The translations under genes were made by a program, and so were the position numbers. The notes beneath the pieces were generated by a model that saw nothing but the letters and a program-made list of their open reading frames with translations, was not told where the DNA came from and ran no database searches. A stretch of 63,986 bases of DNA, filler included, from Collodictyon triciliatum (lineage: Eukaryota): NCBI GenBank assembly GCA_043381765.1. It is 4 parts of 4 records of this genome, joined end to end, with 100 filler letters (N's around TTAATTAATTAA, not from the genome) between each part and the next. Parts side by side here need not be neighbours in the genome. Positions count along the whole stretch, not along the records: positions 48,842 to 63,986 come from JBHJMP010001613.1; 3 more parts are not named here. The stretch is one strand, 5' to 3'. The first letter of the stretch is position 1. Every line of letters starts with the position of its first letter. Of the stretch, positions 3,656 through 63,986 are shown in pieces.

Positions 3656-3751
<96 letters not shown>

Positions 3752-26730: not shown

Positions 26731-27074
26731 TCTGTGGGTCTGGCGAAGAAGCGTGTCAGTACAGAGTTGCGGTCGGCTTCGTTGGCAGCCGGGGATAATG
26801 CCGGCGAAGTCATGTGATTGTGCCAGTGGCTGTCTGCACGTCCCAGGTTTTAGGGGTTCGGAGAGTAGCAGTGAAAAGAAAAAGGGGGTAGGGCAAAGAG
26901 CTGAGAAAGAAAAAAAAAATAGGGGAGAGGAAGGAAAGAGTTCGACAGAGTTGAATGCCTTTCTTTAAGGATTTCTGAACTCATTTTTTTTTTTGTTTTC
27001 AGATTCAGAAATACTTGCTCTGCTCCAGTCTTCAGCGTGGCTGCGCTTGGAGAGACACTCTCCCACAACGCAAC

Positions 27075-32469: not shown

Positions 32470-32569
32470 NNNNNNNNNNNNNNNNNNNNNNNNNNNNNNN
32501 NNNNNNNNNNNNNTTAATTAATTAANNNNNNNNNNNNNNNNNNNNNNNNNNNNNNNNNNNNNNNNNNNN
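32470..32569. other. Artificial scaffold linker N44-TTAATTAATTAA-N44
   Basis: Identical 100-bp linker. Confidence 0.97.
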
Positions 32570-37138: not shown

Positions 37139-37737
37139 ATATTAGTTATGAAATCTGTTCGGTACCTTCTTTCACTCACCCAGAGGCTTTCAAAAAGTTC
37201 GACACAATACATTTGAAGGAAATGAGCCAGACCCTTTGATGCATTTTTCTGATTTTCTTTTCTTTTTCTTTTCCTTTTTTTACTCATTTTTTTATTTATT
37301 TGTGATGACAGGTTGAGAAATGTCAGTGTGGCTTCATGGACTTTATCGTCAAACCTTTGTTTGAAGCGTACTGCAACTTCTCCAAGGACCAAACGTGCGT
37401 CCGAATCCTGGAAAACAATCGCCAATTCTATGGAAAAAAGTATTTTTTCCCTTTTTTTTTTTACCGAGTAGATACACAAACCGAATAGAAAAAAGAAACG
37501 GAAAAAAAGGAAAAAAAGGAAAAAAAAGCTGAAGGGTGTCGCTTGTTGCTGAATGAGCCATCCTGTCGCAGACTAGCCGCACTGCAGCCAAGCGCAGCAC
37601 CGAATCCTCCTCCGACGCAGCAAACGCCTTCAACCCCGACCGTAGCGCCCGTGGTTTCATCCCCGCCAAGTCCTGCACAGCTTTCGGTCACATCAGTCTC
37701 GCAGGAGTCCACCACACCACGCACAGCCGGGAAGTGA
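32760..37737 (+). CDS. Membrane-anchored class I 3',5'-cyclic nucleotide phosphodiesterase (5' truncated)
   Basis: About six hydrophobic helices, then DLESPMYKVI and catalytic motifs NPYHNSTHATDV, IIHDVDHPGRTN, YNDKSVLENHH, LSTDLSQHF, KCADVSNPAK, EFYIQGDEE, PFMDR, QCGFMDFIVKPLF; Pro/Ser tail ends AGK* with AATAAA about 40 nt downstream. Confidence 0.93.
37062..37137. repeat. Poly-T tract in PDE intron
   Basis: Directly visible. Confidence 0.95.
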
Positions 37738-38029
37738 CAGACCCAGAGGACCAAGACAGTGGCCATGCCTTTGTGCATCAATAAACAGACTCCCGAAAGC
37801 AAAAGCAAAAGCAAGAGGAAAAAAAAAGGTGTGGGAAAAAGTAAAAACAGACTCCCGAAAGCAAATGAACAAAAAAAAAATAAAAAAATGAGAAAAAGGA
37901 AGGAAAAGCAGAAGAGGAGAAAAAAAGAGGACACCCGGACAAAACCGCGACACCCGCCCCTGCTTGCTTGCACTCGCAACGCGGGCGCACAAATGAGACT
38001 GCGTGCTGATCCAAATCGGCTGCCTGTAG

Positions 38030-41000
38030 ATGAGCGCAAGTCCTGTGCCTGTGTCGGCTTCGCTGCGCGCAGGCAGGCGATCGTCCCCGCCTGAGGCGCA
38101 GTCCATCTGGTCGAGCACACGCAGCCAGAAACCCTCCGCCATCGCCACGTCTGCGCTGCTTTCCGGCCGCGAGGAGACCGGCATGCCGGCCGCCCACGAG
38201 CTGCCCTCCGCAATCCTGTTTCCCTCTCCTGTCGAGCCGTCCCGTCGAGCCGAGCCGCTGCGGCCGGCGCAAAGACAGACCTTCGATGCCTTCACGCCGA
38301 CGAGAGAGCAGCCCCGGGTGCTTTCCATGGACGAGTCTCTTCGCGAGGCCCTCATCGATGGTGCGCAGTACACTCTGGACGGGAGGGCCGCGTCCATCCC
38401 AGGTGGCTCCGACAGCCCTTTGTTCGCCCTCCAGAACGTACACGACTATGATGCAGACCCTTACTACCGGCCAAAGACTCCCCCGATATCGTCTTTTGCA
38501 TCGCTCATCGGCGAGAGCAGCCGTGCAGCCCGTTCTAGCCATGAGAAGGCAGCCTCGCATCCGGTGCAAATGAGTGACATCCAAGCTGCAAGCGAGCTCA
38601 GCGAGCTGAGAAATGTGGTTGCAGAGCTAGAGGCAAAGGTAATTTCTTTCTATCTCTATTAATGCTACAATGACCAGAATGATATAATACAGTCCTTAAA
38701 CATATTTGATAACGAATTCCATAGAAAAAAAAAGGACAGAAAAAAAGTATCACTTTTATACCCATCATAAAACCTGATGCAAATTGGTGCACGCAAAACA
38801 TTCAACTACTTTCCATTATAACATAAAGTTACAATCAATAACCGCACGGAATCAGCGACTAACTAAAGAAGCTCATGAAGCAAACGCCATGCTGAGAAGA
38901 ACACAGAGTGAAAAGGATATATTTTCGTCTCTCATTGATGACACATCATCTCTTGTAATGCAAAAGTATAATTCACTCTCTTTGTCATACCCGAAAAGCA
39001 TTCCCAAGGAAGGAGATACTCCTGAGGAGTCTTATAGTCCAAAAATAGCACAATTTCGTACCCTCGTATATCATTTGCTTGGGGACATTTCTAAATTCCA
39101 TAGAGAGAACAGGTTAACACATGTGTCTAATCAACTCCACTCTTTAGATATTGGCCACCAAAATTATGAAAAATGCACTCCATTTCATTATCTCATATTT
39201 ACTTATTTTATTCTCCTTTGCATAGTTCAATTTAATTCAATTTAGTTATATTTTATTGTATTCATTGAATGGAGTAAAGAAAAAATGTTTTATTGTATAG
39301 CATTTCATCGGTTATTTTATATCTCCTCAAATCCCCGTTAAAAAAAACAGGGTGAAAAAGAATTTGTTCTTTTCCCCCAGAAACCGTAAATCTAACCATA
39401 CATGTATCACACACTATATCTATAGGAAATTTATTAGAGAGCATACTGAAGTAAGCTCTCAGCTAGAATCTCTGTCTAAAAGAGACCTTATTTCTGTTCA
39501 AATAGATTCAGAATTTGCATCTTTTAAAAGCCAACTGTCGCCATTTGATTATTCTATCCGAATAATTCAAGCCATAGATACCAAAATTCAAAAGCTTCAA
39601 CTTCAATCTAATAAGAACCGGATCGTTGATGAGAAACATTCAGAACTGAGCATGGGCATGAAGGATATAGCCTTGGGCCATAACCAATACAAAGTCGATG
39701 AGAAAGAAGAACAAATCAAACAACTTCAAAAAGAAATTGAAATCATATCCCAAGATAGGGACAAGTATTTTATGGATTCTAAACAATATCAGTTGCAAAT
39801 AGATTTATTACACCAATCTCTCATCGGCTTGAGGTCAACAAAGATTCGATACCAAAGGAATTCAACAAACACCGAGATTCAAAGTGACGAGCTTTATTAT
39901 GTAGGGGTTTTTTTTAAATGAAAAGATGAATAAAATGCAACTGAATTAAATATGAATATTCTTTGTATTGGAAATTATATCATAGTATTTATATCCTTAT
40001 TCTTTGTTTAGTTTAGTTTAGTCTTCATGTAACAATAACAGGAAAAAAATCTTGCAGGATAAAGATAGAGCGGAGCATGAAAGAATAAGTTTGAAGGAAA
40101 CTCTCATAGTTGCCATAACAAAATTGAGTGGTTCCTTAGCTGGCTTAGCTCCTACTATTGATTACTCAGATGATAAGTCATCTGAATCTATTGTTGATAA
40201 GTTTCATTCTCTTGTAGATGAAATATTTTCACAGGTTTTGATGTCATATTCTTCTTTTTTTTTTTTTTATTCAGAATCATAATTGCAACACTCGCACAAA
40301 ATATGAAAAAAAAATGGTTGCTTCTTTATTTTTTATATTTCATAATGCAAATAAATAGAGTCCTTGTACGATTTATCTTTAAAAAACAAAACGTTCTTTC
40401 TTTTTTAATTGGACTTTATGATTCTTCAACGATAGATGCAGAAACTTCGTCATGAAAATCACTTGATGCAGGCTACTCTTGGGCAAATGGAGTCATTTAA
40501 AGAAGAAGCACATACAGAACTGACACAAAGAGCCCGGGCTATTGATGAAGGAAAGCGATTGCATAGTATGGAACTATATAAGATGAAAGAGATAAAACTA
40601 CAACTGGAAAGTGAATTGGACAAAGTCCGAGCAGAGTTACATGAATCTTTAGGAAACATAGAAAGTATGTCAAAAGCCATTATGTTTGCAACTCGCTCCA
40701 TGAAAGAAAATTTGTCACCAAACGAGCTTCACCAGTCTACCAAATCCATATCCTCATTTACATCAGCAACTTCTGGAGTTGAACCTCGCGTTTATCCTAG
40801 AAAAATCCTTTGTGTTTTTGAGACGGTTTTTTCGTCTTTCTTACTGAAATTTTCATCAGAATCAACAAGGTCTAAAGATAAAGACTCACAAATTGGAGAA
40901 CTTCGAAATACAAATGATAGATTAAGACAGGATTATCAAGAGTTAATGCTGTTTAATACAAAACTGCAGAGACAAATAAAAGAAGCCAGACATTCCTACA

Positions 41001-44000
41001 CAACCCAAGCTGATGAAACTAGTGACCTTTTAGAGGATGTTAAGACATTAGAAGAAGAAAAAGCAAATCTTCAAAACGAAATTGAAAGAGCGAAAAAATT
41101 ATACGAAAAAATGTCTGCTGAATACGACCAATCTGAAAAGCTCAACACATCTATATCAAACCAATTACTGTCGCTATGCCAAATGTTTGAACTTGATGTC
41201 TTTGGGTCTGAGGTAGCGAAATTATGATTTATTTTTTAAATAAAAGAATTTCTCTATGCTCAAGCTGGTTTTTAAATGAAAGAAAAATAATCGAACTAAT
41301 ACACTTTCTTATCTAGAGGAAATCATTCAACATGGAATATGATAAAGTAAGCCACATATTGGACATCTTGTCATCACATTTAGAAGAGTACAGAAACACA
41401 TATTTCAGATTGTGGCAGGAAAATGATAATTTAAAAGTAGAAAAAGATTATTGCAAACAACAGGGACTGAAATATCAGGCCATATTGACTGAATCCTTAC
41501 GATTACTACACCCGTTTGTTCATGAATCAAGCTATGACCTCGATTATCACCAAAGTGAAGTGGATTATGCATCCTTACCTAGCACAATAACTTCCTTAAT
41601 CGGTACATGGCAGGCACATTCAAACGAAAGTCACTCTTTAAAAATACAAAATCAGCTTATTCTTCAACAGTATCAGGCATTAAAAAAATATATTGAAACT
41701 GAAATGGCAGAGTCCCAGTCATCTCTCACAAAAATCAAGCAAGTTTTATCGTTGGAGCAATTAGAAGCAAAAGAGCTCACTGAAAAAGCACAACAGATAC
41801 AAGATGACCTCCAAAAGAGTAAATCGAAACGTGATTACTACATGAGCATGCTTATATCGATAGTTTCAACATTATTTCAGAAAATAAGCTTTCATGAAAT
41901 TACGGATGAATTCGAGCATAGTGCTCAATTTGCTATCGATGCTGATACTCTGGAAAAAAGTGAAGTCATCTTCAAATGGGTTGATGATTCGATGGATTAC
42001 ATAGACCGATTGAGGGATTCCATCACCGAAGTACAGTCAAGGTTAGTGATTTCAGAGGTTCGCTCAGGCGAATTACAATCTAATCTCCACCAGCTGCGTC
42101 GAGACTTGGATATGATAAACAACCAAAACCAGATATACCAAAATGAAAATAGACATCTCATGGAATGTTTGAATACTAGCGACATGAAAATAGAGTCCCT
42201 TTCTAGGCAATTAGTAGGTTTGCACTCTGAACAAACAGAAATGAGGCAATGGATGGAGGACTCTCGAAAATTCATAGATGAAATGAATGTTTTAATAGAA
42301 ACATCCAATCAAGTAATGCAAGCAGAAGTCTCATCCAACTTACTGATGATAGAGTCTGTCGGACTAGGTACCATCGATCAACAGCAGACTGTATCCTCTT
42401 ACATGGTCACAGAGATAGATGAATCATCTGTGAATGTACATATGAGGACTCGTGTTTCAGAGAATATTCAAAAGCTGATTCAGTCCACGAAATCGCTCAG
42501 GGAAATTATTCATAGATATAAGGCCACTGAAGAGAACTACAAACTAGACCTGTCCAAGGCTAAAGTTCAGATTGAGGCAAACCAGCATCAGCTCGGTATT
42601 CTGGAAGACGAAGTAAGGAAGGCTAATCAACTTGTTACTCAAAAGCAGCAGAAGATGGACGAAATAATCATGGAATCAAGCGTGTCGCAATCCAACTTGA
42701 GGTGATTTTTTTTTTTAAGAAATAATAACACTTTGTTTGGTTTTTTTTTAACACAAAATCAATTTCCATTTAATTTCCGACTTACAATTTCATATATTCA
42801 CTATTTATTATGATTATTTTTTGTTATAGTTATTGTTATTGTCATTATAGTTATATATAATATATTGCTTCTTTTCTCATCTTTTCCACTTTATTAAGTC
42901 GGGTAGAATTTGAGCATAGCGCCAAGATATGGATTGATCATTTATTTTTTTGAAAAAAAAATTAAAATAAAAAAAAAACAGGAAGGACCTCGCTCAACTG
43001 AGCAGCGCATTACAGGAAAAAGAAATGCTTCTAAAAGAGGATACATTAAATCTTCGAAAACAATTATCTGTGAAAGAGGCTACGATGTCAGAACAAATCA
43101 ATACGATTGAAAAAATCACGGAGCAGAATCGTTTGCTAATCCGATATCACACAAAGACTTCCTCGATATTATCATCCAGTATCCAACATATCCATGATAT
43201 TTACAAATCTTTAAACATACCATCAGGGAATTCATTCTCTCGAAGAAGATTCGTCAAACTAGGAACTCTTAGAGACGGAGATATAAGCCAAACAGATGAT
43301 GAAGATTTGATATCTGATTACGAAAAAGCGTGGGATGATTTCACGAGAACTTTTAGAGCAGCTTACGCTTTGCAGCAAAAATCCAGCGATAAATATCATC
43401 TTGCAGAGTCCGATGCACATAACCACTATGAAAAATTAAAAATACAAGACCAAGAAATAGAGAGTCTTCGTTTCAAACTCGAAGAAGCAAATGACAGAAA
43501 TCGTGAGTTTGTCAAAGAACGCCATATTTTATTAGATAAGCTATCTTATATGGATGAAGAGAAAAGGGTGATGAAAGAGCAATTACACAAAACTCAGGAA
43601 GAAGCCAAAGCAATTATTGCTCGATTAGAGGAAAGCGAGGAATTGCATCTAGAGAATGAGAGGCTTTCAAAATGCTGTATTGAAGCTCAAGAGAACATAT
43701 CATCATTGAAAGAACAAATGAGCAAATATGACGAACAAACAGAGCTCTTGACACGTTCATTGCGGCATGAAAAAGTTAAGAAAAGCTCAATAGTAAAAAT
43801 TCTTGAGACAACATTACAGCACTTACGTCAATCAAACTTGTCAGTTGGGAACATCATGAATGACTTATCATCCACAGGAACACCTGTTGATCGGCCTCTA
43901 GATAGCTTTATATCATTCTCTGCCAATCCAAGTGCCAATCTGAGTTCCAATGCGTCGCAGGGTCACAAAACAATATCCAAATTTGAAGAGGAGTCAATAT

Positions 44001-44311
44001 CTTTGAAAAAGGAGTTTGAACTGCAACTAGAGAGGCTTCAGCTTTTATTGCTACAGCTGAAAGAGGCGAATGAATACTTGCAGAAGTGTTGTAGGCAATA
44101 TCAAAAAGAAGCAGAGAAGAAAGATAAGGACATCTCAAATCTTGGAGCTCAGATACAATCTACCAGGAAAGAAGCCCAAGCACTGCGGTCAGAGTACGAT
44201 GTCCTAAAGAAGAGACACACGTCCCAATTGCAACAAAACCTCTCACAACATGAAGCTAAATTAAAAACTGTAGAGGGAGAGCTCAGAACCGCTGTCGGGT
44301 TTCTAAAATAA
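38030..44311 (+). CDS. Large coiled-coil protein (>1400 aa) with Pro/Ser-rich N-terminus
   Basis: Series of spliceable exons, two of them 1.3-1.4 kb, rich in E/K/Q/L heptads; no family recognised. May be continuous with the PDE; 3' end uncertain. Confidence 0.8.
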
Positions 44312-44484: not shown

Positions 44485-45065
44485 TAAAACAGTTTACGGA
44501 TGCATAAAAGAGAGAAGAAAAAAAAAAAACAAAGTTCATACAACATAGAGCTCCAAGGATTGGTGGGTATGATTCCCTGTTGGTGGACGTAAAATCACAA
44601 TGAGGGAGCCTACCTCTTTTCTTGTTCCTTTTATTTCTTTTTCCTCTTGTCCAAGTACAGGGAAGCGACGACATGAAAAAGAAAAAGAAAAAGGAAATGC
44701 ATACCTAAACCTTTGCTCGGCTTCAAGGTTCTGAGGATTGTGTTTCCTTGCAAGTATGGTGCACCCTCATCACCACCCTGGCTCATCTCAAAGCGCAAGC
44801 CGCAATGACACCCCAAAATCTGGTTGGCGCCGGTGACAGCACAAAGCCCGAAAGGGCAATCACAAAGGCCATACACGCGGGCGTTGTCCAATCTGGGGCT
44901 TGAATGAAGACTCTACAAACGTGCGCCTGGCGCTGCCAAAGGGGCTGTCGCTTTCTGCTTGGGCGCCGAGTAGCAACGAAGCAAAAAGCCGCCGTGCCCA
45001 AACACGACAGGAGCAGCCGACTGACAGGTGGCTGATCTACTTAGGCGTTGTGCGCAGAGCCTGCA

Positions 45066-48609
<3,544 letters not shown>

Positions 48610-48741: not shown

Positions 48742-48841
48742 NNNNNNNNNNNNNNNNNNNNNNNNNNNNNNNNNNNNNNNNNNNNTTAATTAATTAANNN
48801 NNNNNNNNNNNNNNNNNNNNNNNNNNNNNNNNNNNNNNNNN
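48742..48841. other. Artificial scaffold linker N44-TTAATTAATTAA-N44
   Basis: Identical 100-bp linker. Confidence 0.97.
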
Positions 48842-48992
48842 TTTTTTTTTTTTTTTTCCTTTTTTTTTTTTTTTTTACGACCAACAGGAAATCAGTTTCC
48901 ATTCTGGCTTTAGATGATGATTCTTATATGTCGCATCGATTTTTTTTTTTTTTGCATTTGCCACAACACTTAACTCCTCGCACAACTGCTAG

Positions 48993-51900
48993 GCCCTTCT
49001 CGAATGGGTCAATTACAACCTCGATAAAATGGGGATAAAATCGAAGAATCTGCGTCAGGACATGAATGACGGATTTTTTCTCATTCTGTTGGTGAATATT
49101 ACCACCGGAGACAGTGTAGAAGCCTATCATACCCGCATATCCTTGTATGTTTGACAATTTTAAAATAAAGTCATTTTTTATACGTTCACTTTCAAAGAAA
49201 AATTCTTTTTCAAACTACCAAAAACAAATCTAATCAACAATTAGTGATCAACCTATCGAGGATGATGTCATTGTGAAAGAGAATCAATTAATCATGCGTC
49301 GATGGATAGCCACAAGACTCAAAGCAGATCACGAGGGCTCTCTGGAATTCATAAATCCGGACTTTAAAGGTGACAAGATATTTCATCTTATTCCCTATTT
49401 ATTATTGGCTCTTTCTATTACTTTCATTTAGTTTGATATAATACGTGTTGTAGTGTAACTTAAACGGATATAATTCCTATTAAAAACTTTTATTTTGCGC
49501 AGAAATTGTAAGGCTTACTCTATGGCACCTAGTTCATGCATCTATAGGATTAGATGAAGGAATTGAGGTACTGAATTCAATATCTCCCTGCACCATATAC
49601 GCCTCATTTATCTAATTAAAATAATCACAGAGAAATATACCTGAAATGTATGCAAGAGCCAAGCAAATCTTCTCTCGAACCAAAGTTCCATTTCCTTTCC
49701 AAGGTTTGATATAAATTCGATTCGAACCAAATTATTAAAAACTTGCTTCCTCTTTTTCTTTTTTTTTCATTTGGTATATAATTTTTTTTTTAAAAAAAAA
49801 GTAAATTCAAACTGCGATACTCTTTATTTTTTTAGGTCTGGGATTGGAAGATAAAGGGGATGTCATATTTATTAGAGCAAGCATTCTACTAGACAAAGTT
49901 TTTATTTATTTGCCATCTCGTTTTTTTTTATATAAAAAAAAGAATAATTAAAGCCAACATATGCCTCTAGAGCTAATTACAACATCTCCCTGATATCCAA
50001 ATTAGATATGCCCCTCAAATCATGACCAGAAATTGAAAAAGTGGCTTCCTCCTCCACAAAAATACACGACATCGAAGACGCTTGATCTGGATATATTCAA
50101 CGAGCGTGTAATCCGTGTCTTCTTTTCATCTGATGTCGATTTTGGTAGAATGAGAAAGAAATTCTTCGAACATGGCGGTAAAAAGTAAGTGATTATAAGC
50201 TGGTCTAAATGTCTAGCTGATCTATCTGCTGTATTATATTACCTAGTTTAATTTATGCCTTCCTTTATAAAGTATATACTGTAAAGATTGCAGGAATATG
50301 TGTCTTCGATTGGATTTGAATTGGTTTTCATCGACCTTCGTTGTGGGGTAAATTCAGGAGACAGCAAGGAAGGATGGGTAACCTCCTCCCTCAAAATAAA
50401 AAAAAAACATGCAAAATTTGTCTTCATATTGTCCAATAACAGTTCTTAATTTTCTGATAATTTTTTCAAGGCCATTATCCACAGTCTCGAATGCATAAAA
50501 AAATGTGCATACTTTGTGTGTGCTCTTGGAACTCACTACGGATGGACGCCTGACCAAAACAAATTAGAAACCAACGTAAAGGAACGATTTGAAGAACTGG
50601 CAAATCAAAACCCTGATGCTCGAATTGAAGATGTCCAAATCGAATGGAGATCATCAGCCAGCTTTTTGTTTCCCTTTATAGATTCAATGCCCGGTCTCAG
50701 TGTCACAGAATACGAGGTTAACCATTGATTTTCTATTTTTTCAATGTATTTTTATCGTTGTCACATTCTAATTAAGGAAATCAAAAGAAAGTATTTCTGA
50801 TGTTAAGCCATTTTAAATAACTATAAGGTTCAATATGCTGCACTTTTGGAAACCCCTAAGTGTAGTCGTGTCTTTTTCTACTTTTTGGATGCCGAATCAC
50901 CTACTCTTGCAGTCTCTGAAGACAGCAACCATATATCTGAAAAGGATATGCAATCGGTGGCCAACTCATCCTCTTATTTAAGAGCTATTAAAATATACAA
51001 TAAATCATTTTAATTTCTTTATTTGGTGAGTAACAAGTCTACACATATAGATAAATAAGCAAGAAACATTAAAAGGGAAGGTGATTGAGAAATATGGGCA
51101 TTTCTCTATCAAGAATGAGCAAGATTTTTTGGATTTAGTCCAGTCTCAACTACAGCATGCAATCAAACTAGATTTTTCGTGCACAGAGGTAAAAATTTCA
51201 ATCTGAGTAATATTCGGAGGTATCCCTTAATAAACTATTGAAAAAAAAGGTTGGAGATGCAGAAGATAGAGGACATGAGCAATTTAAGCTATTTCACTTA
51301 AATCGAGTCTTTAATCAGAGAGGAATTTTGAAAACCATTCATACTCAGGTAAAGCTATTTTCTTTTCTTTTTATTTAAAAAGAGAGAGAAAATTGGAATA
51401 ACTATTCACGCCATTCCATTAACAATGAACTGTGAAAGATATTGGAAAACATCTTGGAAGAAAATAGCAGACCTATTATCCTGTCTGGAGAATCAGGAAT
51501 AGGAAAGTCATCCATGATGTCAGTCATAGTTCAGAATCTAGAGGGATTAAATGATTCAAACCTCTCTATATTCTATCACTTTGTGGGGTGCACACACAGA
51601 AGCTATTTCGTGGAGAGGTAAATTTTCTGTTCACATATTTGCTTAACACAGCATTTTCTAGTCTCTCTTTCAACTCATGAAATATATTATATTTACATAA
51701 TTGTATTTATTATTCAAATATCTCAACAGTATTGTACTGCGCTTCTGGGAACTACTTACATCATCCAGAGGCGAATCATTTGATGATGATGGAAATGAGA
51801 GTAATTTTGAATACACTATTTGTATTATCGCTATCACCATTTTTTCACGGGTATCTAGTTTTTTTTCCTTTATTCGATTCAAAGATTCACGGGTATCTAG

Positions 51901-54900
51901 TTTGAATTGTACTTACTTATCAACATTTAAGATACGAAAGCGATGGGTCTATTCGATTTATTTAATCATGCTAAGCATAATAAAAGGTATAGCGTCTTAT
52001 CAAACTCTTTTACTTTGTTTTACAATTCATAATTCTAATATGATCTTTAATACCATAGCAGGGATGAGCGCTTCGTCTTTGTAATCGATGGTGTCAATCA
52101 ATTAAAGCCATCTATTGGAAATGCATATCCCCATCTTCTCCATTGGTTACCCAAAACAATTCCAAAGAGCATATGTTTGATCGTTTCTGGAGAGACTGGC
52201 CTCATACCTCAAGAAGTACACTCTAATACAAAGTTCAAATATTGTAAAAAGAATATTATTTCTTTTCTCTTTTTCTAAATTCTGTTTCATATATATCAAA
52301 ATACTATGTGACCACGTATACCTTATTGTTGCTAGACTCTATCAGAATTTTGTGCATACGAAGCAAATGCGATGATTGCAGACGAAATAGAAGAAGCAAT
52401 ACAGTCCATTTCTTACCAATTTGAAAAAAAACTAAGCTCCCAACAGGTTGCTATGATAACGGAGCTATATGATCGAACAGGTACTTTCTTTTCCTTTGTC
52501 CTACCTTCTAGCTAATATTTGAGTATTTAATCCTTCACAAAAAAAAAAAGAAGTTCAATTCAATCTATCAAGCACATGCCCTCACTTTATGAAATCTAAT
52601 TAAATCTTTATATTCATTTTTAGAAGATCAATAATTATTTTGTAACGATACTGACCATAATTGCTTAATATTGATAGGTCATCCCTTCTATCTGCGCACT
52701 CTTTTGGATGAGTTCCTTAGTTCTGGAATGTCCGATAGTTTGGGCTGTGACCTCGGTGCCCTTTTACGCTCAGAAAATGGAGAAATTCTGAGCTTTGCCA
52801 TAATAAAGAACTTAGAATCACGATATAATCAAAATGGTAACTTTCCATATTTTTAAAGAACAAACGAGTAACTGATTGCATCAACAAATCCTTTAGTCAC
52901 GTGCTTTTGAATGCTCGATTTTTCATTTTATTGAGTAACTCAAAAGGATCTTCGATGGTTGATTCGTGTATGTTGGGTCTACTTGTCTCTAGAATCGGTC
53001 TCACAGAAGATGGATTGGAAAAATATACCGAATATGTTATGAGTGCATGTATTGACGTATCTTTGTGGTATGTTTTTTTTAAAAAAATTTGAGTCCACAT
53101 TTATCGATAATATATCCATGTCATCATTCCTCTTTGTTACAAACAATTAATGGGAATTAAAATAAAATAAAAACAGGACCTCGTTCTTTTTCAGACTAAA
53201 GAACTTTCTTTTTGTTAGAAACGGCAGGCATGTCTCATACTTTTGAGTTACAAATACCTCAGAAATTTAACCATAATTAATAAATATTCCACATCTGACA
53301 TACTAAACATAACGTATTAGATACGTTTATTCGCACCCACACTTCGCTGACGCTGTCAGCAAGTACTTTTTTCAAGACCGTCTAGCTAAGATTAAAGTAC
53401 ATAAGGAGTTTGGAACTTGGTTGTTAAGTCAATACTACTATTCCCCTGCTGCGGATGAAGACATCATAGGAGAAATATGCCATCAGCTTTTTGAAGGAGA
53501 AAACTATGACTTACTTGTGCAATACTTAAGCGAAGACCATGTATTATATACCAACCTACTGATTTCCGAAAGTTCGAATTGAATGCTATAATGTAGTCGA
53601 GCGTAAAGTCAACTCATAATGATCTTCAAATTAGGTTGTTATTGCGATGCTGAGAGGAATTTATCGCACAGAGTTTTTCTACTATTGGAAGATTATGAAC
53701 AGTAAAAGAGTGGCAAATCACTTAGAAGTCTATGAAAGAAAAATACAGGTAAGTGTCATTCTTGAAGCAATGTCGCACCAATTTTTTTTATTCATTTGCT
53801 TTATTATATTTATGTCATATTTTACGAAACCAATTAGAAATCAAATGAAGTTGGAGATGTTCTCTCGGAATATTTTCTAGAATGCTACGAATTAGAATTT
53901 GTTTTGCATGGAGTCACCCAACGTGTTTCAACCAAAAAAAGTGAAGGTGAGATTATCTTAGTAGTTACTTGTGCTAATATTAAATTATTTCCTTTTTGTT
54001 GTTGTTAGAAAACTCTTTAAAATTGAATAACCCACAGAATCAAAATTAAGAGACTACTACACCCTTGGAATTGCATCCAAAGGCATTCATAAGTAACCAA
54101 ACACAAGCTTTTCTGAACAAATAAGAAATAGAAAAAGTGCTTTAGAAAAGATAAATAATTTAGAATAAGACAGGATGAAAATAATGCAACTGATTTTCAT
54201 TTATCTTAAGGTGGGAGGAAGCCATTTACTATTTCAAAAGATGTCTCAAGATACAGGATGAATTCGGACAAACAAGTGACCAGTTGGCCACCTGTCCTCA
54301 CAAAGAATTGGGAGATATTTACAAATACCAAGGGAGGTAAATAGTGATTTATAGCAAAAACATCTACTGGTAGTATAGCAAAACTAATACCTTTAATAAT
54401 TTATCGAATAAAGGGAAAAAATAATCTTAAAAAAAATTAAGGTTCGAGCTAGCCAAAGAGGAATACAATAAAAGTTTACTATTGGCATCAAGTAAATCTG
54501 AGCAAGCAGACATTTGCGTAGCTGAAATCTATGACTGTTTCGGCGATATGCACTTACTCAGCGAGAGGTTTTTCAATCATCTATCATTTGTAAAAATTAC
54601 ATGTCATAATCATTTAACATTTATCTTTTTATTTTAAAAAAATATTTGTTACTAAATTGGCTGTTTATTTTTATTTTTATTTTTGTACAATAATACCCTC
54701 TCCGAACTGTAGCATAGTCTTAGTATCTATTTTTAATTACAACTAAGAAAATTTCCAAAATTTTAGTAGCAAGCTGGCCATGTCTGAGTACGAAAAGTCT
54801 CTGAAAATCCGTACCAATATACTTGGCTATGTGCATCCTCTGCTTGCGACTTCCTATATCAGAATGGGACGTGCTCAAATGGCTGATAGGAAGTTTGAAC

Positions 54901-57900
54901 TTTTGCTTTTATATGGATACAGCATAGAATGTGTATATGATTCTCGAAATATGCATACTAAAGTAAAATTTTGAATGAATTTTCCCGCCAGACTTAGCGA
55001 ATCTGCTCGATTATTTGAGAAGGCCGAAGACATACTCGAGAAGACCCTTGGAAATATACATCCCAAAATAGCCATGGCCCTCTTTGATATTGGAGAGTCA
55101 TTATTCAAAATTGGAAAGTATGCCACAAAAATGTGATTAAAATGTCATGAATATTGCAAACTAATAGATTTCTATCTTTGAAAAGAATGTACGATAGCTT
55201 GCTTTACTTCATCCCAGCCCTGTCCATGTTCCTTGACACTTTGGGAGAGAAAAACATATTTGTTGCTTTATGCTTCCAAATGATTGGTGATGCAAATCAC
55301 GATTTGAACGAGTATTTTGCTTCCTTTTTTTTTCACGACTTTTATATAAATATCATGAATTAGCAGAGAACTGTGGCTTCTCTATTTTTCATTTAATTTC
55401 AAACATAATACCTTTTTCAGATTTTAAAATTGAATAAAAGAAAAATTGGGATGCTTTTTCAAAGTTCCCTCATAATACTGATCCTTTTTTATTTTTTCAT
55501 ATATTTTACCCTAGGTACAGCGCAGCTTTAGAATCCTACGAAAAATTGATGGAAATTAACAGATTACTATTCGGGGAAAATCATCCCAACTATGCTTGTT
55601 CTCTCGAAAATGTCGGTAGATCCAATTTTGAGTTGCAGGAGTACGTTTTTATTTTCATATCATATACTTTTCTATTTTTTCTTCATTTTTTGGGTGCAAA
55701 GTTGTTTATATTCAAACTTACATATCTCTTGATGATCAAAGAGTCTAATGATATGAAACAGGTATTTCGACTTCGTCTACTATTTTAAAAAGGCAGTCTC
55801 AATACGAAGAGAAACAAAAACCATCGTTTCAATGAAGAGTATATCCCAGGCCAAAAATATGATAGAGTATTTCAAGGCTAATCCAGACTACGAAATCGTC
55901 ATCGAGCTATATAAGACAATATTCTCATCCGTTCTAGACCAATTTGACTCGAGCTCCATTATGCTATGGAATGTCTATTATGATATCGAAAAAGTACACA
56001 AAACGATTAATAAGCACGAAGAAGCAATCGAATTCTGGACGGAAATTAGAGATACATTTACCGAAAAACTTGGATGGACCCACCCAATAACTCTAAACTC
56101 CTGCGAGTACTTATCATATCACTCTAAAGAAATAGGCATCCTTAAAGAGCCCTTCGAATTCACAAGGGTTAAATATCTCATTGAGGAAAATTTCAAAGAT
56201 ATAAAACCTGACCAATCTTGGGGCCGCGACTTTGTGATTGAGCGCCTTCTTGATATTATATACATGTCAAGAAGTGATGAGAGTAAATCAAAGACAGCAT
56301 CTGATGCAATTACTTTCCTTAACTATATGCGCATTTCTTTTAGTAGAATGGATTTTTCATTCATCAGAATTCCTAATGCTGACCTCAGCAATTCAATAAT
56401 TGATGGTGCAAACTTCACGGGCGCCATACTAGATGGTGTTAATTTCTCAAATTCCATTCTTGGCGATTGTATTTTTGATGACGCAAGCATGAAAAGTGTT
56501 AAATTAGGTCGCATGCATACGCGACTAGAGGGACATCTAAATACCATCACTAATCTGGCGTACATTCAGGCGCCAACCGGAGAAAATTTACTTGTCTCGA
56601 GCAGTAACGATAAAACCATCGCAATATGGGATTTGGCCACCGGAAATCAAATCCAATTATTAAAGGGTCATACGGGAGCCGTCAGAGCCCTGTGTGTGAT
56701 TCAGGAAACACATGGAAAAAATAAGGTGATATCAGGAAGCAATGATAGTACAATAAGAATTTGGGATTTAGACTCTGAAGAGCAGAATAGAGTACTAGAG
56801 GGTCATAAAGGAGCTGTCACTAGTGTTTCCATTTTCCAAGGATCCGATGGTGACCACTGGTTGGCTTCTGGAAGTGATGATAACACAATACGTATATGGA
56901 ATGTGTTCAGTGGGAATCAAATCAAAGTGCTAGAAGGCCACACAGAATCTGTAACATGCCTGTGTAGTATCCAAAGACCGAGTGGTGACCACTGGCTGGC
57001 TTCTGGAAGTGATGATAACACAATACGTATATGGGATGTGCTCAGTGGTAATGAAGTAAGAATACTAGAAGGGCATTTGGGCCCCTTAAAATGTATATCT
57101 AGCGTTCAAATTCCAGACGGGGCAATCTGGTTAGCATCCGGAAGTGACGACGAAACCATTCGTACGTGGGATGTGGACACTGGAAATCCGATTTACATAT
57201 TAAGAGGCCACACAAACAAGGTCAATTGTATTCAATTTGCCAAATATTCATCTGGAAACCATCTCCTTATCACTGGCAGCGATGATATCTCGCTACGCGT
57301 CTGGGACATAACCACTGGAGATCAAATTCGAGTCATGAACGGACATACAAGCTCTGTTATATGTCTTTGTAGCATTCCAGGACCTAATGGCGAGAATTGG
57401 CTAGCCTCTGGTAGTGTTGACAAAACGATACAAATTTGGGATATGGACGCAAATAGCCTAGTCGTAAACTCAAAGGGACATGAGGATTACGTGGCCAGCG
57501 TTTGCCAAGTTACCGGCCCCAATGGAAGAAATTGGCTGGCTTCTGGAAGTGTAGACAAGACTGTTCGTATTTGGGATGTGGCCACCAGAAATCAAATTAG
57601 AGTCTTGGATGGGCATGAACATGCTGTTACTAGTGTTTGTAGTATCAAAGGACCTAAAGGTGAAAATTGGCTGGCATCTGGAAGTGAAGATAAAACGGTT
57701 CGTATATGGGACATCAGTCAAGATGAAGAAATCGTTACTCTTGAGGGACATGAGGATACAGTAAGGTGCGTCTGTTACATTCAAGGGCCAAATGGAGAAA
57801 ATCTTGTGGCATCTGGAAGTAACGATACAACAATACGCATTTGGGATTTGGAACATGGAAGTTTGATCAGAACTCTTGAGGGGCACAAAAAACCGGTCTT

Positions 57901-60900
57901 TTGTGTTTGTAGTATCCAAGGGCCGAAAGGAGAACATTGGTTGGTGTCCGGGAGTGCCGACAAGACCATTCGTGTGTGGGACTTGAGTACCGGGGATCAG
58001 ATCAAGCTATTACTCGGGCACCGTGATTGGGTATTTTGTATATGCAAAATCACATGGATCAACGGCGAAAATTGGTTGGTGTCTGGGGGCGCTGACAGAA
58101 CAATACGTATTTGGGATTTGCCTTTCGAGGACGAAATCAGGTCGTGGATAGGGCATACAGGCACCATAATCAGCGTGTGTAGCATCAAAGGACCCCATGG
58201 TGAAAATTGGTTGGCAAGCAGCGGTGATGATAGAACTGTTCGTATTTGGAATTTGGATAGCAGTACGTTGGTAAGAAATATAGAATCCAACTACATCATG
58301 ACCAGCCTTTGTACATCTGCCGGGTCTGGAGCAGAAAATTTACTCTTATCCGGCTGCGGTGACTGCTCAATTCGCATTTGGGATTTGGATAGTCCTCCTA
58401 AGGTTGAAAATTCTCTATTGTTACCAAAATTAATTCTAGACCATGCGAAAAGCAACTGCAGAAATCGGTTCAATCGCTTGGTTTGTACTAAGTATGCCAA
58501 GGAGATTCACATTTGGGACATATTTGAAGGAAGCCAACTACAAGTTTTGGAGGTCCACGATACCGTCGAAGTTTTAAGCATATGCATTGTTGAATGCTCG
58601 AATGGTGACTATTGGTTGGTCTCTGGATGTAACGACAAAATCATCCGAATCTGGGACGTAGCCACCGGAAGCCAGATTAGAAATCTTGTGGGGCATGCCA
58701 GTGATGTATGTACTGTTTGCAGTATTCAAGGAATGAATGGTGAAATGTGGCTAGCATCTGGAAGCACTGACAAAACAATACGAGTATGGGATTTAGAGAC
58801 TGGATGCCAAGTTATGAAATTAGAAGGTCACGAAGGTGCTGTTTTTATCGTTTATAATATCAAGGTGGTGAATGGAAAACCATGGCTGGCATCTGGAAGT
58901 GAGGATATGACCGTGCGCATTTGGGATTTGACAACGTCCAACGAAATAATGAAATTCAAAGGGCACGAAGGTGGTGTCAACGGAATTTGCTATCTGAAAG
59001 GTATTTGGGGAAACGATTGCTTGGTATCTGGCAGTTCTGACAAGACAGTGCGCCTTTGGGATTTACAAACTGGTGCCCAAACCCATGTATTGGATGGTCA
59101 TGAGGACAGTGTCATGAATGTGTCTTGTATACGAGGTCAAACGAATATTATAATTGTTGCTGGATGTCTTGATAGCACTCTTCATTTTTGGAACACAGAT
59201 ACTAAGGAAAGAACGAAAACCTTGAATGGTTATGACCATTTCCTTCTTGACCCACAATTCAAAAAAGGCCCGAGAGGTAAAAACCTGTTTATTTATGGAG
59301 ATGATGGCGCTATTTGTGTATGGGATACCTGCTCTGAGTTTCACGTGAAAAAAATTCAAGTTCTGAACTACATTAACAGTGTATGCAGCACGCAAGGGCC
59401 AAAAGGAGAGAATTGGTTGGTGTCTGGAAGCAATGATAAGATGCTTACTATTTGGAACTCAGAAAATGGAAGTCAACTAGTTGACATGGAGGTTCACAAT
59501 AGCTGTGTTAATACAGTTTGCAGCGTACAAGGCCCAAGTGGAGAGAAATGGATAGCTTCTGGAAGTGATGATAAGATGATTTACATTTGGGATGTAATTA
59601 ATGGGAGTCAAATGAAAAAATTGAGTGGGCATACAAATGCAATTTTAGCTCTTTGCCACGTGAGAGGTAGAAACGGAGAAAACTGGCTAATATCTGGTGG
59701 TAGCGATAGATTAATAATCATTTGGGATGTCATCACTGGATATAAGCTCAAGACTCTAGAGGGACACACAGATTCTGTGAAGTGCTTGTGTGCTGTTGTA
59801 GGCTCGAATGGTGAGAATTGGATAGCCTCTGGAAGTAGCGATAGTACGGTACGAGTTTGGGATTTGGAAACTGGAAGTTTAATTCAAATTTTAGGGGGAG
59901 AAGAAAATATTGTCAATAGTATCTGTTCTATTCAAAGTCCAGACGGAGTAAACTGGCTCGCTTCTGGAGGTGACGATAAAACAATACGTGTTTGGGATAT
60001 ACAATCTGGAAAACAAGTCAAAGTATTAAATGGGCATCTGAAACGTGTCTATTGTATTTGCAACATTACGGGGCCTAATGGTGAGTATTGGTTGATTTCT
60101 GGTGGAGACGACGGTACTTTACGTATTTGGGATTTGATTACATGTAACCAAGTAAAAATGCAAAGAATGCAGTCGAAGCGAGTGAGCTTCATTCATCAGT
60201 TGCAAGGACCAAATGGAGAAATTCGACTGGCATTTGGGGGTGACAAAAAGGCGATTCTATTCTGGGATTTGGTGCCTTCTAACCAGATTGGTATGTTTTC
60301 GGGACACCAAGATATTGTAACACGCGCAATTATTACTTATGGGCCAAATGAGGAAACCTGGCTGGCCTCTGCAAGTTTTGATAAAACGATACGAATCTGG
60401 GACTTGTCTAGCGGGAAACAAGTCAGGGTATTTGAAGGACACACAGACATTGTGACAACAATGTGCTATACCCGAAGTATGTTTGGAGATAATTGGTTGA
60501 TTTCAGGAAGCGGCGACAAAACCATCCGTGTATGGGATATCGTCACTGGTGATCAAATTAAAATCTTGGAGGGAAGCCTTAAAAAAATTATAGATGTCTG
60601 CCCTCTCCGTGGGAAAAATGGTGAGCGGTGGTTGGCCTCCGGGTCTAAAGATAGCAAAGTTATTGTCTGGGATTTAGACTCTGGAGATCAAACCAAGGTA
60701 TTGCAGGGACATATTGGGAATGTGACAACTCTATGTAATATCCAGAGGCCAGATGGACCCCCTTTACTTGCATCAGGAAGCTATGATGGAACAGTACGTA
60801 TTTGGGATCTCCCAAGTGGGAATCAAGTCCAATCGCTGAATTGTCTTTCAAAGGTTGTATCCATTTGTGTGTTCAAGGGTCCCAAGGGAGAAACTTGGCT

Positions 60901-63043
60901 TGTATCTGCCGGAAAAGATAAAACGATCCGTATTTGGAACATCTACGAGGGTTCTCAAGTAAGGGTGATAAGCGCTAATTCAAGTGATATATCAAGCATT
61001 TGTCACATTAAAGGACTTTATGGAGCGGACTGGTTTGCATGCGGCAATAAAGACAGTAGTATTCATATTTGGGACATGAGGTCTGGAAATCAGATCAAAA
61101 AAATTGAAGGGCATAGTGGCGCAATATACTCCCTATGTGAAGTTCCCACTACTACCGAAAGCAGTTTGCTGATTTCTGCAGGCAAAGATAAGACCATTAG
61201 AATGTGGGATCTGACTCCTGTTTATCAGTGTAAAATTCTTCTGGCGGAAGAGCAGGCAACTACATGTGTTTGTCATATTAAAGGAGATTCTGGAGAGAAC
61301 TGGATTGCTCTTGGCAGAGAGTGTGGTATGATTTCCATTTGGGATATGCTCACAAAAACTCAACTGAGAATCCTAACCGGGCACGAAAACTGTGTCATGG
61401 GAATATGCCACATCCGAGGTCCCAATGGAGAGAGCTGGATAGCTTCTGGTAGCTGTGATAAAACCATCATTATCTGGGATGTTGGCACTGGTAGTCAGAT
61501 TAGAACTTTGGAGGGCCACACTGACTACATTAGGTGTGTCTGTAGCATCCAAGGGCCCAAAGGAGAAAATTGGCTTGTGTCGGGAAGCTGCGACAAAAAA
61601 ATCATGATATGGGACATTGCTTCAGGAGATCAAGTCAGCGTGCTAGAGGGTCATGCTGGCACTATAAGAAGTCTGTGTAGTACAGCAGGTCGAAATGGAG
61701 AAAGCTGGCTAGCATCTGGCGGCAGTGATAATGCAGTTTGTATCTGGGACATAGATACTGGATTTGAAATTGAACTTTTGGATGGACACACGTCAAGTGT
61801 GTTGTGTGTCTGTAGTATTCAGGGGCCAGGAGGGAACAATTGGTTGGCCTCTGGAGGAAAGGATAAGGTCATTTATATCTGGGATGTTAAAGATGGGAGT
61901 AAAATCAAGACACTCGAAGGACATACAGATTATGTTCGATGTGTTTGCAGCATTCAAGGCCCGAATGGAGAAAAGTGGCTGGCTTCTGGAAGCGATGACA
62001 AGACCATACGCATTTGGGATATAATGAAGGGAGAGCAAATCAAAATTTTGGGAGGACATGCAAGATACATTTGGGATGTTTGCAGTATTCAAGGCCCGAA
62101 AGGAGAAAACTGGTTGGTTTCAGCAAGCGATGACAAGACTGTGCGTATCTGGGACTTGTGTGATGCGAATGATATAATCTCTCTTAATCCTTTGTCGGAA
62201 TCTATTTCCAATAGTTTCGGAATCGAAGAGCAAAATGGAGAGAATTGGTTGGTCTACGTATCTGAAGACTATGTCATCAGCGTTTGGCGCTTGCAAAAAG
62301 GGAGACATATGTATCTCAAAGGACATTCTAAACCAGTCGGTGCTATTTGCTTGCTGGAAGGGTTTGATAAAGAAAAATGGCTAGCATCCGGAAGCTGTGA
62401 TGGAACCATCAGAATTTGGGATTTGAGTAATGGTAACCAAGTAAAATGTCTGGACCTCAACGGAGAAAAGTCTATGTGTATCAGCAATCTTCAGGGTCCT
62501 GATGGAGAGAATTTGTTGGCTTCTCGAAACGGTGATGGCAGTGTATGTGTGTGGGATTTAAGTACGTGCGAGAAAGTATATTCTGCTCACAAAACCAATC
62601 TATCATTTACAGCTGACGGATATCTGATGATGAAAGAAAATTCTGGGAAAATCCTGGCTCGATTCAAAAATGCATTCGACGCCTTAAATTTACTTGATTC
62701 AAACAAAATTTCTGAAGAGAAAACAAAAGGTATCATCGGCCCGTCCAAGATGATTGGCGGAAACCTACAATTAAGGAACACAAAAGACTTGAGCTTGTTC
62801 AATAGAAAGGTTTTGCTGTCGATTGGTGCCGTATCGTACGATTGCAATTTCGAAAAATATTGCAAATTATCGAATTACACAAACTTCCAGGCTCATATCA
62901 TGTCGAAGTGCTATGAAAATGGATATGGAACAGAAAAGGATATAGAAAAGGCTGTTGTGTGGATTGCAAAGGCTGGGAAATTGGGAAGTAATCACCGCCC
63001 AATCGAAAAATACCTTTTTTCCATGCGTCATGCCCTTGCTTAA
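48993..63043 (+). CDS. Giant NLR-like STAND protein: CH - DUF4062 - NACHT - TPR - pentapeptide - ~45 WD40 - Sel1 (5' probably truncated)
   Basis: ALLEWVN...NLRQDMNDGFFLILLV (CH); IRVFFSS, FIDLRCG, LGTHYGWTP, SVTEYEV (DUF4062); Walker A GESGIGKSS at 51487, YHFVG, Walker B FVIDGVNQL, WLP, GHPFYL; TPRs LGYVHPLLA, LGNIHPKIA, FGENHPNYA; phase-2 splice GA|G into a 7282-bp terminal exon (55762-63043). Confidence 0.9.
56531..62558 (+). repeat. Coding tandem array of ~45 WD40 repeats, ~135-nt unit
   Basis: Hand count; consensus GHxxxVxCVCSIQGPNGENWLASGSDDKTIRIWD. Confidence 0.92.
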
Positions 63044-63650
63044 AACTTGGTCATCACTAAATGGAGATGATTCGAGAGAACACAAAAAAAAAAAAAAAAA
63101 AATTCGATTGCACTGCCACCCACCCTGGCCTGGACGTGTCCCCGCTTCTTTTGGATTGCAGGAACTCTGGAGACATAAAATATGCAATTATTGAATTTTT
63201 GAGTTCAAAAATTTTTTTTATTAAATCATTTTATTTTAATCAAATGGTGCTGTTCTCATGAAATTATTGTATATGAACCTTGTGTCAAATGGTGATTCTA
63301 ATTCTCGAGAGAAATCAAGAAATAGACCATCGTGCCGCTCTTGTGATTATATCTTCCGAGGTGTACATAACAAGTAAAAAAAAAAATGTCTAGTTCATGT
63401 CATGTGTACTTTTTATTATTTTTTGTGTGTTTTTATTTGTTTCAAGTGGAGTTCGTGATACTATCGGTTGGTCGATTACGAGCCTGTATGGTAGACACCC
63501 AGATTGTCTAAAAGATAATTCTGGCAAGATGGCTACCTCTGGAAAAAAAGACATTCTTAATGGACACGTCAAGTGAGTGACCCGGCGTTTGGTTGGCTGT
63601 GTGGATAGAGGGGGTTGGATATGTTGTGGGAGGTATCTCATGATACATTC

Positions 63651-63878
63651 TCATATCTCCGCGTGTGGTCGTAGGAGCGGAGAATATGCGCGTGTTTCAG
63701 CATGCTGTTCAAGAGGCTGTATTGCATGAGGCTTTCTAGCTTGAATTTGCTGCCTTCTCGTTCTAGTGGGTCATTAGAGCGAGAGGATGCATGCGCACTC
63801 CGTAATGGTCTTCACCGTATGTCCCATTGCCGCTGTACAGATAATTCCAGGGTCGTGGGTCATTTGAACGTGTTTTGG
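63651..63878 (-). CDS. Possible last two exons of an unidentified gene
   Basis: Acceptor CCAG| then KTRSNDPRPWNYLYSGNGTYGEDHYG, GT donor, acceptor ACAG| then HAETRAYSPLLRPHAEI*; GC-richer than flanks; no homology recognised. Confidence 0.3.
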
Positions 63879-63882
63879 CTGG

Positions 63883-63986
63883 TTTTTTCTTTCTTATTTT
63901 TCTTTTTTTTCTTTTTTTTCTTTTTTTTCTTTTTTTTCTTTTTTTTCTTTTTTTTCTTTTTTTTCTTTTTTTTCTTTTTTTTCTTT
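63883..63986. repeat. (T7-9C)n low-complexity repeat
   Basis: Directly visible. Confidence 0.93.

Follow-up and report, generated by a model that had tools for sequence, protein, structure and literature searches.

A 63,986-base stretch of DNA from Collodictyon triciliatum (assembly GCA_043381765.1), hereafter called the window, carries at 48993-63043 (+) a single gene of 30 exons that is intact apart from 5′ truncation by a contig break. The protein is at least 3,609 residues long, its N-terminus being missing, and consists in order of a CH domain, a TIR-like TeTIR (DUF4062) domain, a NACHT module, TPR units, a pentapeptide-repeat segment, 45 WD40 units and a tail that contains a single Sel1-like repeat. 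That the region represents a single gene, intact and transcribed, for a very large TeTIR(DUF4062)-NACHT protein of the STAND class (signal-transduction ATPase with numerous domains), with a switch mechanism assigned by analogy, is the reading favored here, and a probability of roughly 60% is attached to it. The TeTIR-NACHT kind of STAND protein is already known; novelty lies in the stacking of a TPR-pentapeptide-WD40 module, in the CH domain and in the size.

The curated spliced model comprises 3,609 codons and zero stops. A preliminary description of this DNA had proposed a reading frame of well over 3000 residues, which the model bears out, with the correction that the gene is 5′-truncated. 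The model was built by hand and then corrected against P0014, a homologous open reading frame (ORF) from Diphylleia rotans, a flagellate of fresh water. Its 29 introns measure 61-203 nt, 28 being GT-AG and one GC-AG; the latter (53228-53320), which reads GCATGT...TATTAG, is probable and was placed via homology to P0014. Reading exon 18 beyond the GTATGT donor at 53068 leads to a TGA at 53090-53092. Downstream, the frame 55757-63043 (+) is open across 2,428 codons, and an uninterrupted giant exon of 7.3 kb encodes TPR-like units, the pentapeptide segment, the WD40 array and the tail. Two other constructions were discarded: an automatically generated exon chain, trained with the codon usage of the WD40 part, which mis-called the NACHT exons and was superseded by hand and homology curation, and a GT-AG-only path via 53064/53202/53231, abandoned because P0014 showed the true frame.

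The contig that bears the gene starts at 48842 inside an intron, the 3′ part of which (48842..48992, +) ends in the acceptor AG at 48991-48992, with the upstream exon or exons lying outside the window. An RNA contig from run X1 has 114 extra letters before 48993, the last 30 of which are absent from the window. Since the gene contig begins within an intron and the RNA extends beyond 48993, at least one 5′ exon is missing. The D. rotans protein P0014 has ∼189 further N-terminal residues, which the window protein lacks because of the contig break.

Transcription and splicing were assessed in public sequencing runs, six of which contain parts of the stretch (shares of 0.05-0.18; five recorded as RNA). 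These are freshwater or lake metatranscriptomes and one run of a coded organism. Four runs were mapped to the gene, with gene parts that have no contig cover being uninformative; joints marked “cut +2” were moved by 2 letters and checked. Seven GT..AG joints were present in RNA (49369|49503, 49567|49631, 50184|50287, 53748|53838, 53946|54038, 54092|54211 and 55640|55762), and an eighth, 49144|49245, was also found in RNA contigs. Splicing was therefore seen directly for 8 of the 29 introns, and indirectly for one further intron, in RNA contigs from three studies; in the indirect case, an 11-letter loose end fits the exon end at 53540 and supports 53540|53635. In run X6, that of the coded organism, many contigs matched 56562-62345 at 90-95% likeness, with high summed depth in some bins. 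Odd non-GT/AG joints of X6 in this WD40 region had sides of 23-32 letters and mostly showed 90-95% likeness; they were read as relatives, paralogs or assembly noise. Given that DNA identity between the gene's own WD40 units does not exceed 72%, the X6 contigs may stem from paralogs or from a related strain instead of cross-mapping.

The N-terminal half of the model was assigned by a combination of Pfam matches, RNA joints and collinearity with P0014. Exons 1-3 (48993-49144, 49245-49369 and 49503-49567; together 48993..49567, +) encode the CH domain, which was matched by Pfam on 48993-49154 in a segment free of stops (E 9.1e-6; score of 26.3 bits, cut-off 26), aligned to the CH domain of P0014 and was found spliced across exons in X6 record 24. 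Exons 4-5 (49631-49703 and 49836-49897; 49631..49897, +) form a linker to the TeTIR domain that is collinear with P0014 and is tied to exon 3 by the RNA joint 49567|49631. Exons 6-10 (50006..51188, +) encode the TeTIR/DUF4062 domain, assigned through the Pfam match on 50450-50728, joint 50184|50287 and alignment with Diphylleia, TEP1 and bacterial members; the match (E 2.7e-4, 21.5 bits) is under the cut-off of 24.7 because the domain is split across exons. The NACHT-type STAND NTPase is encoded by exons 11-17 (51250..52836, +), as indicated by Pfam NACHT/NPHP3_N (E 3.4e-4 / 1e-4 on the P-loop exon and 8e-4 on the Walker B exon) and by tblastn against P0014. Both Walker A (GESGIGKS, exon 12) and Walker B (FVFVIDG, exon 15) aligned to P0014. 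Exons 18-23 (52947..54092, +) cover a post-NACHT helical/winged-helix region, assigned by P0014 homology for exons 18-19 (52947-53067 and 53177-53227) and by RNA joints. Most of the upstream domain scores fall at or under Pfam cut-offs because short introns interrupt each domain. Searches with single exons returned little: a word-based search with the 82-residue TeTIR exon gave 10 candidates, none scoring, and a PDB sequence search gave 0 matches at E≤10 for the TeTIR exon and generic P-loop matches only for the P-loop exon.

Beyond this region, exons 24-29 (54211..55640, +) encode six TPR_12-type units, assigned from the exon table, from single-exon Pfam TPR matches and from collinearity with the TPR_12 region of P0014 (Pfam TPR_12 in the window, E 4.2e-6). 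The exons are 126, 126, 123, 126, 126 and 126 nt in length, are all in phase 2 and hold one 42-residue unit each, so that exon skipping or duplication would preserve the frame. The last intron (55641..55761, +; 121 nt, GT..AG) interrupts a TPR unit where the five preceding TPR-exon introns do, and in the same phase, and the giant exon thus begins in mid-TPR unit (...NFELQE|YFDFVYYFKKAVSIRRE). Its start (55762..56329, +) comprises a TPR-like tail and a linker that leads to the pentapeptide segment; four of the four next-tier relatives tested from a HMMER search with this part were TPR_10/TPR_12 proteins, which shows that the giant-exon start is itself TPR-like. The TPR_12-type units of the protein number about nine in all. 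The pentapeptide-repeat segment, a predicted short β-helix (56330..56506, +), was matched by Pfam Pentapeptide (E 8e-16) and by Pentapeptide_4 at residues 190-248.

The 45 WD40 units (56498..62557, +) follow without an intron, as determined by Pfam (33 stretches) and by a motif count of units that end in W-D/N/R at a spacing of 44-46 residues. This ∼6-kb intron-free array and the one-unit-per-exon TPR series are opposite gene structures within the same gene. Identity among the 45 units averages 35% (maximum 76%) in amino acids and 49% (maximum 72%) in DNA; these low values show no sign of recent homogenization. The Trp of the WD dipeptide (column 44) is present in all 45 units and the structural Asp (column 38) in 42 of them. 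The array accordingly has the sequence character of an old, structurally constrained one and not of the homogenized hypervariable type of many fungal NLRs. More divergent units recur about every seven units, and the array may form ∼six β-propellers, which is a guess. An AlphaFold2 single-sequence model that covered the pentapeptide segment and the first 16 blades was of low quality (mean pLDDT 58.3, pTM 0.44, pentapeptide segment <30); its hint of blocks of ∼seven blades was not relied upon. The C-terminal tail (62558..63043, +; stop at 63041-63043) is conserved and holds one Sel1-like repeat (62900-62989) at 25.1-25.2 bits, under the cut-off of 30.7. A sub-threshold Sel1 match lies at the same position in three of the four tails tested (the window protein, P0014 and P0013, not P0015), and the motif GGN..., ...LL..G..S.D.DF..YC is common to the window protein, P0013, P0014 and P0015.

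These results uphold most of the preliminary description with regard to structure. Each domain named there (CH-DUF4062-NACHT-TPR-pentapeptide-∼45 WD40-Sel1) was found by Pfam or motif count, several of them sub-threshold, and in one gene the TPR and WD40 arrays both lie C-terminal to a single NACHT. The proposed in-phase splice between the two arrays (GA|G at 55762) is exactly the GT..AG joint 55640|55762 found in one X1 RNA contig, with a depth of 6.6 and 85 letters on its shorter side. This junction is further backed by the matching place and phase of the intron and by a 1,442-column alignment to P0014. Separate transcripts for the NACHT-TPR part and the WD40 exon, raised in that description as an alternative outcome, were not what was observed in RNA, where the two are joined.

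Relatives were sought by HMMER among 1.84 billion representatives, the query being the 190 residues from the last splice site to the pentapeptide segment (E≤1e-3). Of the 163 proteins returned, three only spanned the whole query: P0013 (7e-29), P0014 (3e-21) and P0015 (1.5e-19). All are transcriptome ORFs of D. rotans in EukProt (EP00002), from three Trinity genes. No full-length linker relative outside D. rotans was found among the 1.84 billion representatives, and next-tier matches consisted of many short stretches. The protist origin previously suggested is thus plausible, given that the only full-length relatives found are D. rotans transcripts. P0014 is full length (2,619 residues), P0164 has 2,401 residues, and P0013, P0015 and P0166 are fragments. 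In P0014, CH (5.8e-11), DUF4062 (8e-11), NACHT (1.6e-5; 25.3 bits against 26.7) and TPR_12 (3.5e-40) are followed by the pentapeptide segment, WD40 units and the same tail. Residues 1-1420 of the model aligned to residues 189-1610 of P0014 as a single high-scoring segment pair (36.5% identity, 1,442 columns, 906 bits), and the model aligned to P0164 at 31% identity over 1,445 columns. Both P0014 and P0164 are single transcript ORFs that cross the position of 55640|55762.

A second search with the TeTIR-NACHT core of P0014, from which the best 120 of 264 matches were listed, added further D. rotans genes among the matches listed: P0164, of the same build, P0166 and P0165. P0166 is a fragment with TPR, pentapeptide (PF00805) and WD40 families, P0164 likewise lists all three, and P0165 has DUF4062, NPHP3_N and TPR without WD40. 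The D. rotans family comprises at least six Trinity genes, five of which have the pentapeptide-WD40 module, and repeat number varies. Among the matches listed, the next tier consisted of bacterial DUF4062-NACHT-TPR or DUF4062-NACHT-WD40 proteins (E ∼1e-53, 25-28% identity), followed by “telomerase protein component 1” proteins from Patella, Branchiostoma and Pelomyxa. A FastTree phylogeny of the core was calculated from 77 of 121 rows after removal of 44 with <450 profile positions; true NPHP3, NWD and TTC41 were not included. The window protein grouped with P0014 and P0164 (support 98) and then with P0165 (100), separately from both the TEP1 clade and the bacterial groups, and shared its clade only with D. 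rotans paralogs. By its sequence, the gene is assigned to the TEP1/NWD/TTC41/NPHP3 (TeTIR-NACHT) STAND family, and the composite C-terminal module, common to the D. rotans paralogs, is inherited. A word-based search with the first 262 residues of the giant exon returned 11 matches, all to unrelated pentapeptide proteins as far as checked (four of four), and scans of metagenome contigs revealed no relative.

Two other proteins in these searches bear on domain combinations. In Balamuthia mandrillaris, the protein P0234, which carries the name “actin”, combines actin, DUF4062, NACHT and TPR families and is the family's second case of a cytoskeletal fusion at the N-terminus. For the metagenome protein P0221, the families DUF4062, NACHT, WD40 and TPR_1/TPR_2 are all listed, irrespective of their order; mixed arrays may therefore also occur in prokaryotes.

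The domain before the NACHT of TEP1, NWD1, NWD2, TTC41 and NPHP3 has been named “TeTIR” in a preprint (bioRxiv 10.64898/2026.09.21.753143), which reports NADase activity for TEP1. There, human TEP1 E1008A, C959A, F902A, R914A, R942A and R976A were near-inactive and W943A showed a modest drop only; the TeTIR domains of human NPHP3 and TTC41 were reported to be inactive. The window protein contains the TeTIR motifs RVFFSS, DLRCG, HYGW, SVTEYE and FFYF, and in a multiple alignment with TEP1 orthologs the motifs between RVF.SS and FFYF inclusive are common to both, with the P-loop after them. On this basis, membership of its TeTIR domain in the family is supported. TEP1 numbering was mapped via Patella TEP1, and all eight residue identities from the paper fitted gap-free. 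F902, S905, R914, R942, G944 and E1008 are kept in the window protein, E1008 being the second Glu of SVTEYE in the SVTELE column. The family RWG loop is altered, with Cys at W943 (DLRCG, compared with DLRWG in the Diphylleia, TEP1 and bacterial rows), and R908 falls in a gap within a disturbed STFRDM motif. Of the active-NADase set (F902, R914, R942, C959 and R976), three residues are kept and two are replaced, C959 by Ser and R976 by His, so the TeTIR domain of the window protein may be weak or inactive and its catalytic competence is doubtful. By contrast, the three aligned Diphylleia paralogs retain every listed residue.

Comparison with known systems places the protein closest to its Diphylleia relatives, with which it shares the order CH, DUF4062/TeTIR, NACHT, TPR_12, pentapeptide, WD40 and a tail with a Sel1-like repeat. 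The Diphylleia proteins have 9-28 WD40 units by motif count, as opposed to 47 in the window protein by the same loose count (45 of them real), and at the TeTIR positions occupied by RCG, Ser and His in the window protein they retain RWG, Cys and Arg. A string search of the literature found nothing relevant on Diphylleia TeTIR/NACHT proteins, which are apparently unannotated ORFs. Animal TEP1, NWD1, NWD2, TTC41 and NPHP3 have in common with the window protein a TIR-like domain directly before NACHT, the catalytic Glu column (SVTEYE) and C-terminal superstructure-forming repeats. They differ in that family members are described in the TeTIR preprint as having “either WD40 or TPR” at the C-terminus, in line with the preliminary description's account of the family, whereas the window protein has both, joined by a pentapeptide segment. 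TEP1 begins with TROVE/VWA, unlike P0014, which has CH without TROVE or VWA; the window N-terminus is missing, and the protein falls outside the TEP1 clade. The bacterial proteins P0168 (Chthoniobacterales), P0182 (Pyrinomonadaceae) and P0254 (Gimesia) are the next-best TeTIR-NACHT core matches and show the same motifs, but bacterial DUF4062-NACHT proteins have one repeat type each, no CH domain and 1,440-2,300 residues.

Fungal NLR-like proteins (HET-E and NWD2 type; Dyrka et al. 2014, PMC4986451) resemble the window protein in having a NACHT followed by WD40 or 42-residue TPR units and in being multi-copy with variable repeat number. A sizeable share of their arrays exceeds 85% internal identity, and the maximum given there is 21 WD repeats (PMC4986451). 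The window array, in contrast, has 45 units of which none are >85% identical (maximum 76% in amino acids and 72% in DNA), and the N-terminal domains differ. Neither a C-terminal LRR nor a CARD/PYD/DEATH-type effector, as in animal NLRs, was present, there being no LRR or death-fold family among the Pfam matches listed (one scan giving the best 25 of 52 families). Plant TNLs and APAF1 follow a common logic of effector domain, STAND ATPase and repeat sensor, with a TIR effector in TNLs and WD40 propellers in APAF1; they use NB-ARC rather than NACHT, have LRRs or two propellers only, and lack stacked arrays. A stacked TPR-pentapeptide-WD40 STAND build was absent from the literature by string search, which cannot prove absence, and the supplementary non-human architectures of the TeTIR preprint may bear on this point. 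The preliminary description had proposed an unusual, stacked and undescribed architecture. That it is unusual stands; it is not a one-off, given the same build in D. rotans paralogs, and it belongs to a known family. The alternative that the architecture marks a conserved single-copy housekeeping group was not borne out either, because the multi-copy, narrowly distributed D. rotans paralogs of the same build make the window gene neither unique nor single-copy housekeeping.

By analogy with other STAND proteins, the repeat region would hold the NACHT module in an off state, and binding of a partner at the TPR/WD40 surfaces would allow nucleotide exchange and oligomerization, which in turn would cluster the N-terminal TeTIR and CH domains. 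Since the Diphylleia paralogs have all of the TeTIR active-site residues, NAD+ cleavage is a plausible output there and a doubtful one in the window copy, where the TeTIR may be weak or inactive and have a role in assembly or scaffolding. Attachment of the protein to the cytoskeleton is the probable role of the CH domain.

Several observations weigh against the favored reading of an intact TeTIR-NACHT switch protein. The switch mechanism is itself an analogy with other STAND proteins. The DUF4062, NACHT and Sel1 matches on window exons each lie under Pfam cut-offs, such that their assignment leans on the collinear homolog, and exons 9, 10, 18 and 19 were positioned by phase and homology rather than by RNA. 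The pivotal joint 55640|55762 is one contig in one of four runs, with the other three having no cover there. The window branch is long (1.33 compared with 0.29 and 0.36) and its composition odd. Last, the protein combines C959→S and R976→H, at positions where the human TEP1 alanine variants C959A and R976A are near-inactive, with W943→C and the disturbed STFRDM motif.

The main rival, a minority possibility, accepts the same gene and family but makes the product a constitutive scaffold at the cytoskeleton or flagellar apparatus, with a dead TeTIR and 45 blades as docking platforms, comparable to ciliary NPHP3 or to TEP1 of ribonucleoprotein particles. The Ser and His replacements at C959 and R976 fit such a role, as does the inactivity reported for human NPHP3 and TTC41 TeTIR in the preprint, and so do the old WD40 units, which show no sign of recent homogenization of the kind described for fungal NLR arrays in PMC4986451. 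The presence of a CH domain and the fact that the organisms concerned are flagellates also agree with it. Conserved housekeeping scaffolds are, however, usually single-copy and widespread, whereas D. rotans has at least six Trinity genes with differing repeat numbers, one of them without WD40, and the linker has no full-length relative outside D. rotans among the representatives searched. The Diphylleia copies, moreover, retain all catalytic residues.

It is very improbable that the gene is a decaying, still transcribed pseudogene copy of the family. The long terminal branch, the loss of several TeTIR consensus residues, the single GC-AG intron and the in-frame TGA at 53090-53092, if the exon is read beyond the donor 53068, would suit decay, but the 3,609 open codons, ordinary splice sites, intact Walker A and B motifs, retention of the WD-dipeptide Trp in 45/45 units and of Asp in 42/45, and spliced RNA in three studies speak against it. 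The notion that two adjacent genes (CH-TeTIR-NACHT-TPR and a WD40 gene) were falsely joined by hand-splicing, for which the single bridging RNA contig and an early in-frame ATG in the giant exon might be cited, is already contradicted by the 85 letters of that contig on its shorter side at GT..AG, by the fact that the giant exon starts inside a TPR unit and continues the register of the TPR exons before it, by the TPR-like units that precede the WD40 array inside it, and by P0014 and P0164, which are single ORFs through the same junction.

With the favored TeTIR-NACHT switch reading retained, the role in innate immunity or non-self sensing put forward in the preliminary description is not supported as stated and would follow by analogy only; the indirect signs for an immune class are the multi-copy family and that analogy, and low repeat conservation and the two changed NADase residues weigh against it. 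A broader proposal, offered as speculation and judged unlikely, is that this deep-branching freshwater protist lineage with its Diphylleia relatives may own a family of TNL-like receptors for immunity or prey sensing. Their TIR-like NADase and their CH domain, the latter binding the cytoskeleton, would sit under a NACHT switch that reads a TPR solenoid, a β-helix and ∼six propellers. Frame-preserving skipping or duplication of the one-unit phase-2 TPR exons could vary the sensor, and the window copy would represent a divergent member whose active site has been remodeled.

The TeTIR-NACHT family has only recently been recognized as carrying a TIR-like NADase and is described in the preprint with either WD40 or TPR. 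Genomic, RNA and cross-species evidence at this locus shows that the two arrays can be passed on jointly downstream of a single NACHT, with a pentapeptide segment as the link between them, and the stacked build was already present as unannotated ORFs in a public transcriptome. The family also offers a concrete protist system in which to ask whether the logic of plant TNLs, TIR-STAND-repeat, is at work beyond plants and animals, as well as the purpose that a 45-blade array serves. In addition, the gene records two modes of repeat-array growth, one TPR unit per exon and an intron-less WD40 tandem array.

The window itself is composed of four separate pieces of ∼16.2 kb, joined by linkers of N44-TTAATTAATTAA-N44 at 16185-16284, 32470-32569 and 48742-48841, and the studied gene is alone on the last piece (48842-63986). 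A microsatellite is present at the start and end of every piece, which indicates that the ends of the pieces are contig ends. Because the pieces are unlinked contigs, synteny cannot be inferred, the order of genes from one piece to the next is meaningless and other window genes are not shown as neighbors. When the model was compared by tblastn with the remainder of the window, which consists of these unlinked contigs, 19 high-scoring segment pairs resulted, 0 of them beyond the gene, and hence no paralog was found.

Base composition is uneven, with GC-rich islands (>50% GC) at 601-1500, 5001-5400, 25001-26900, 37501-38700 and 44701-45400 and 33-37% GC in the remaining window. The island at 37501-38700 contains an ATG-initiated ORF (38030-38662) that leads to AT-rich coiled-coil exons at 38778-44311, and the RNA letters 5′ of 48993 are likewise GC-rich; together with the islands, these suggest that first exons are GC-rich and the others AT-rich. 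On another contig, the ORF 3550-4089 (-) has the P-loop motif of a G-protein α subunit. Downstream of the studied gene, a 3′-open frame of 104 codons (63675-63986, +) reaches the contig end.

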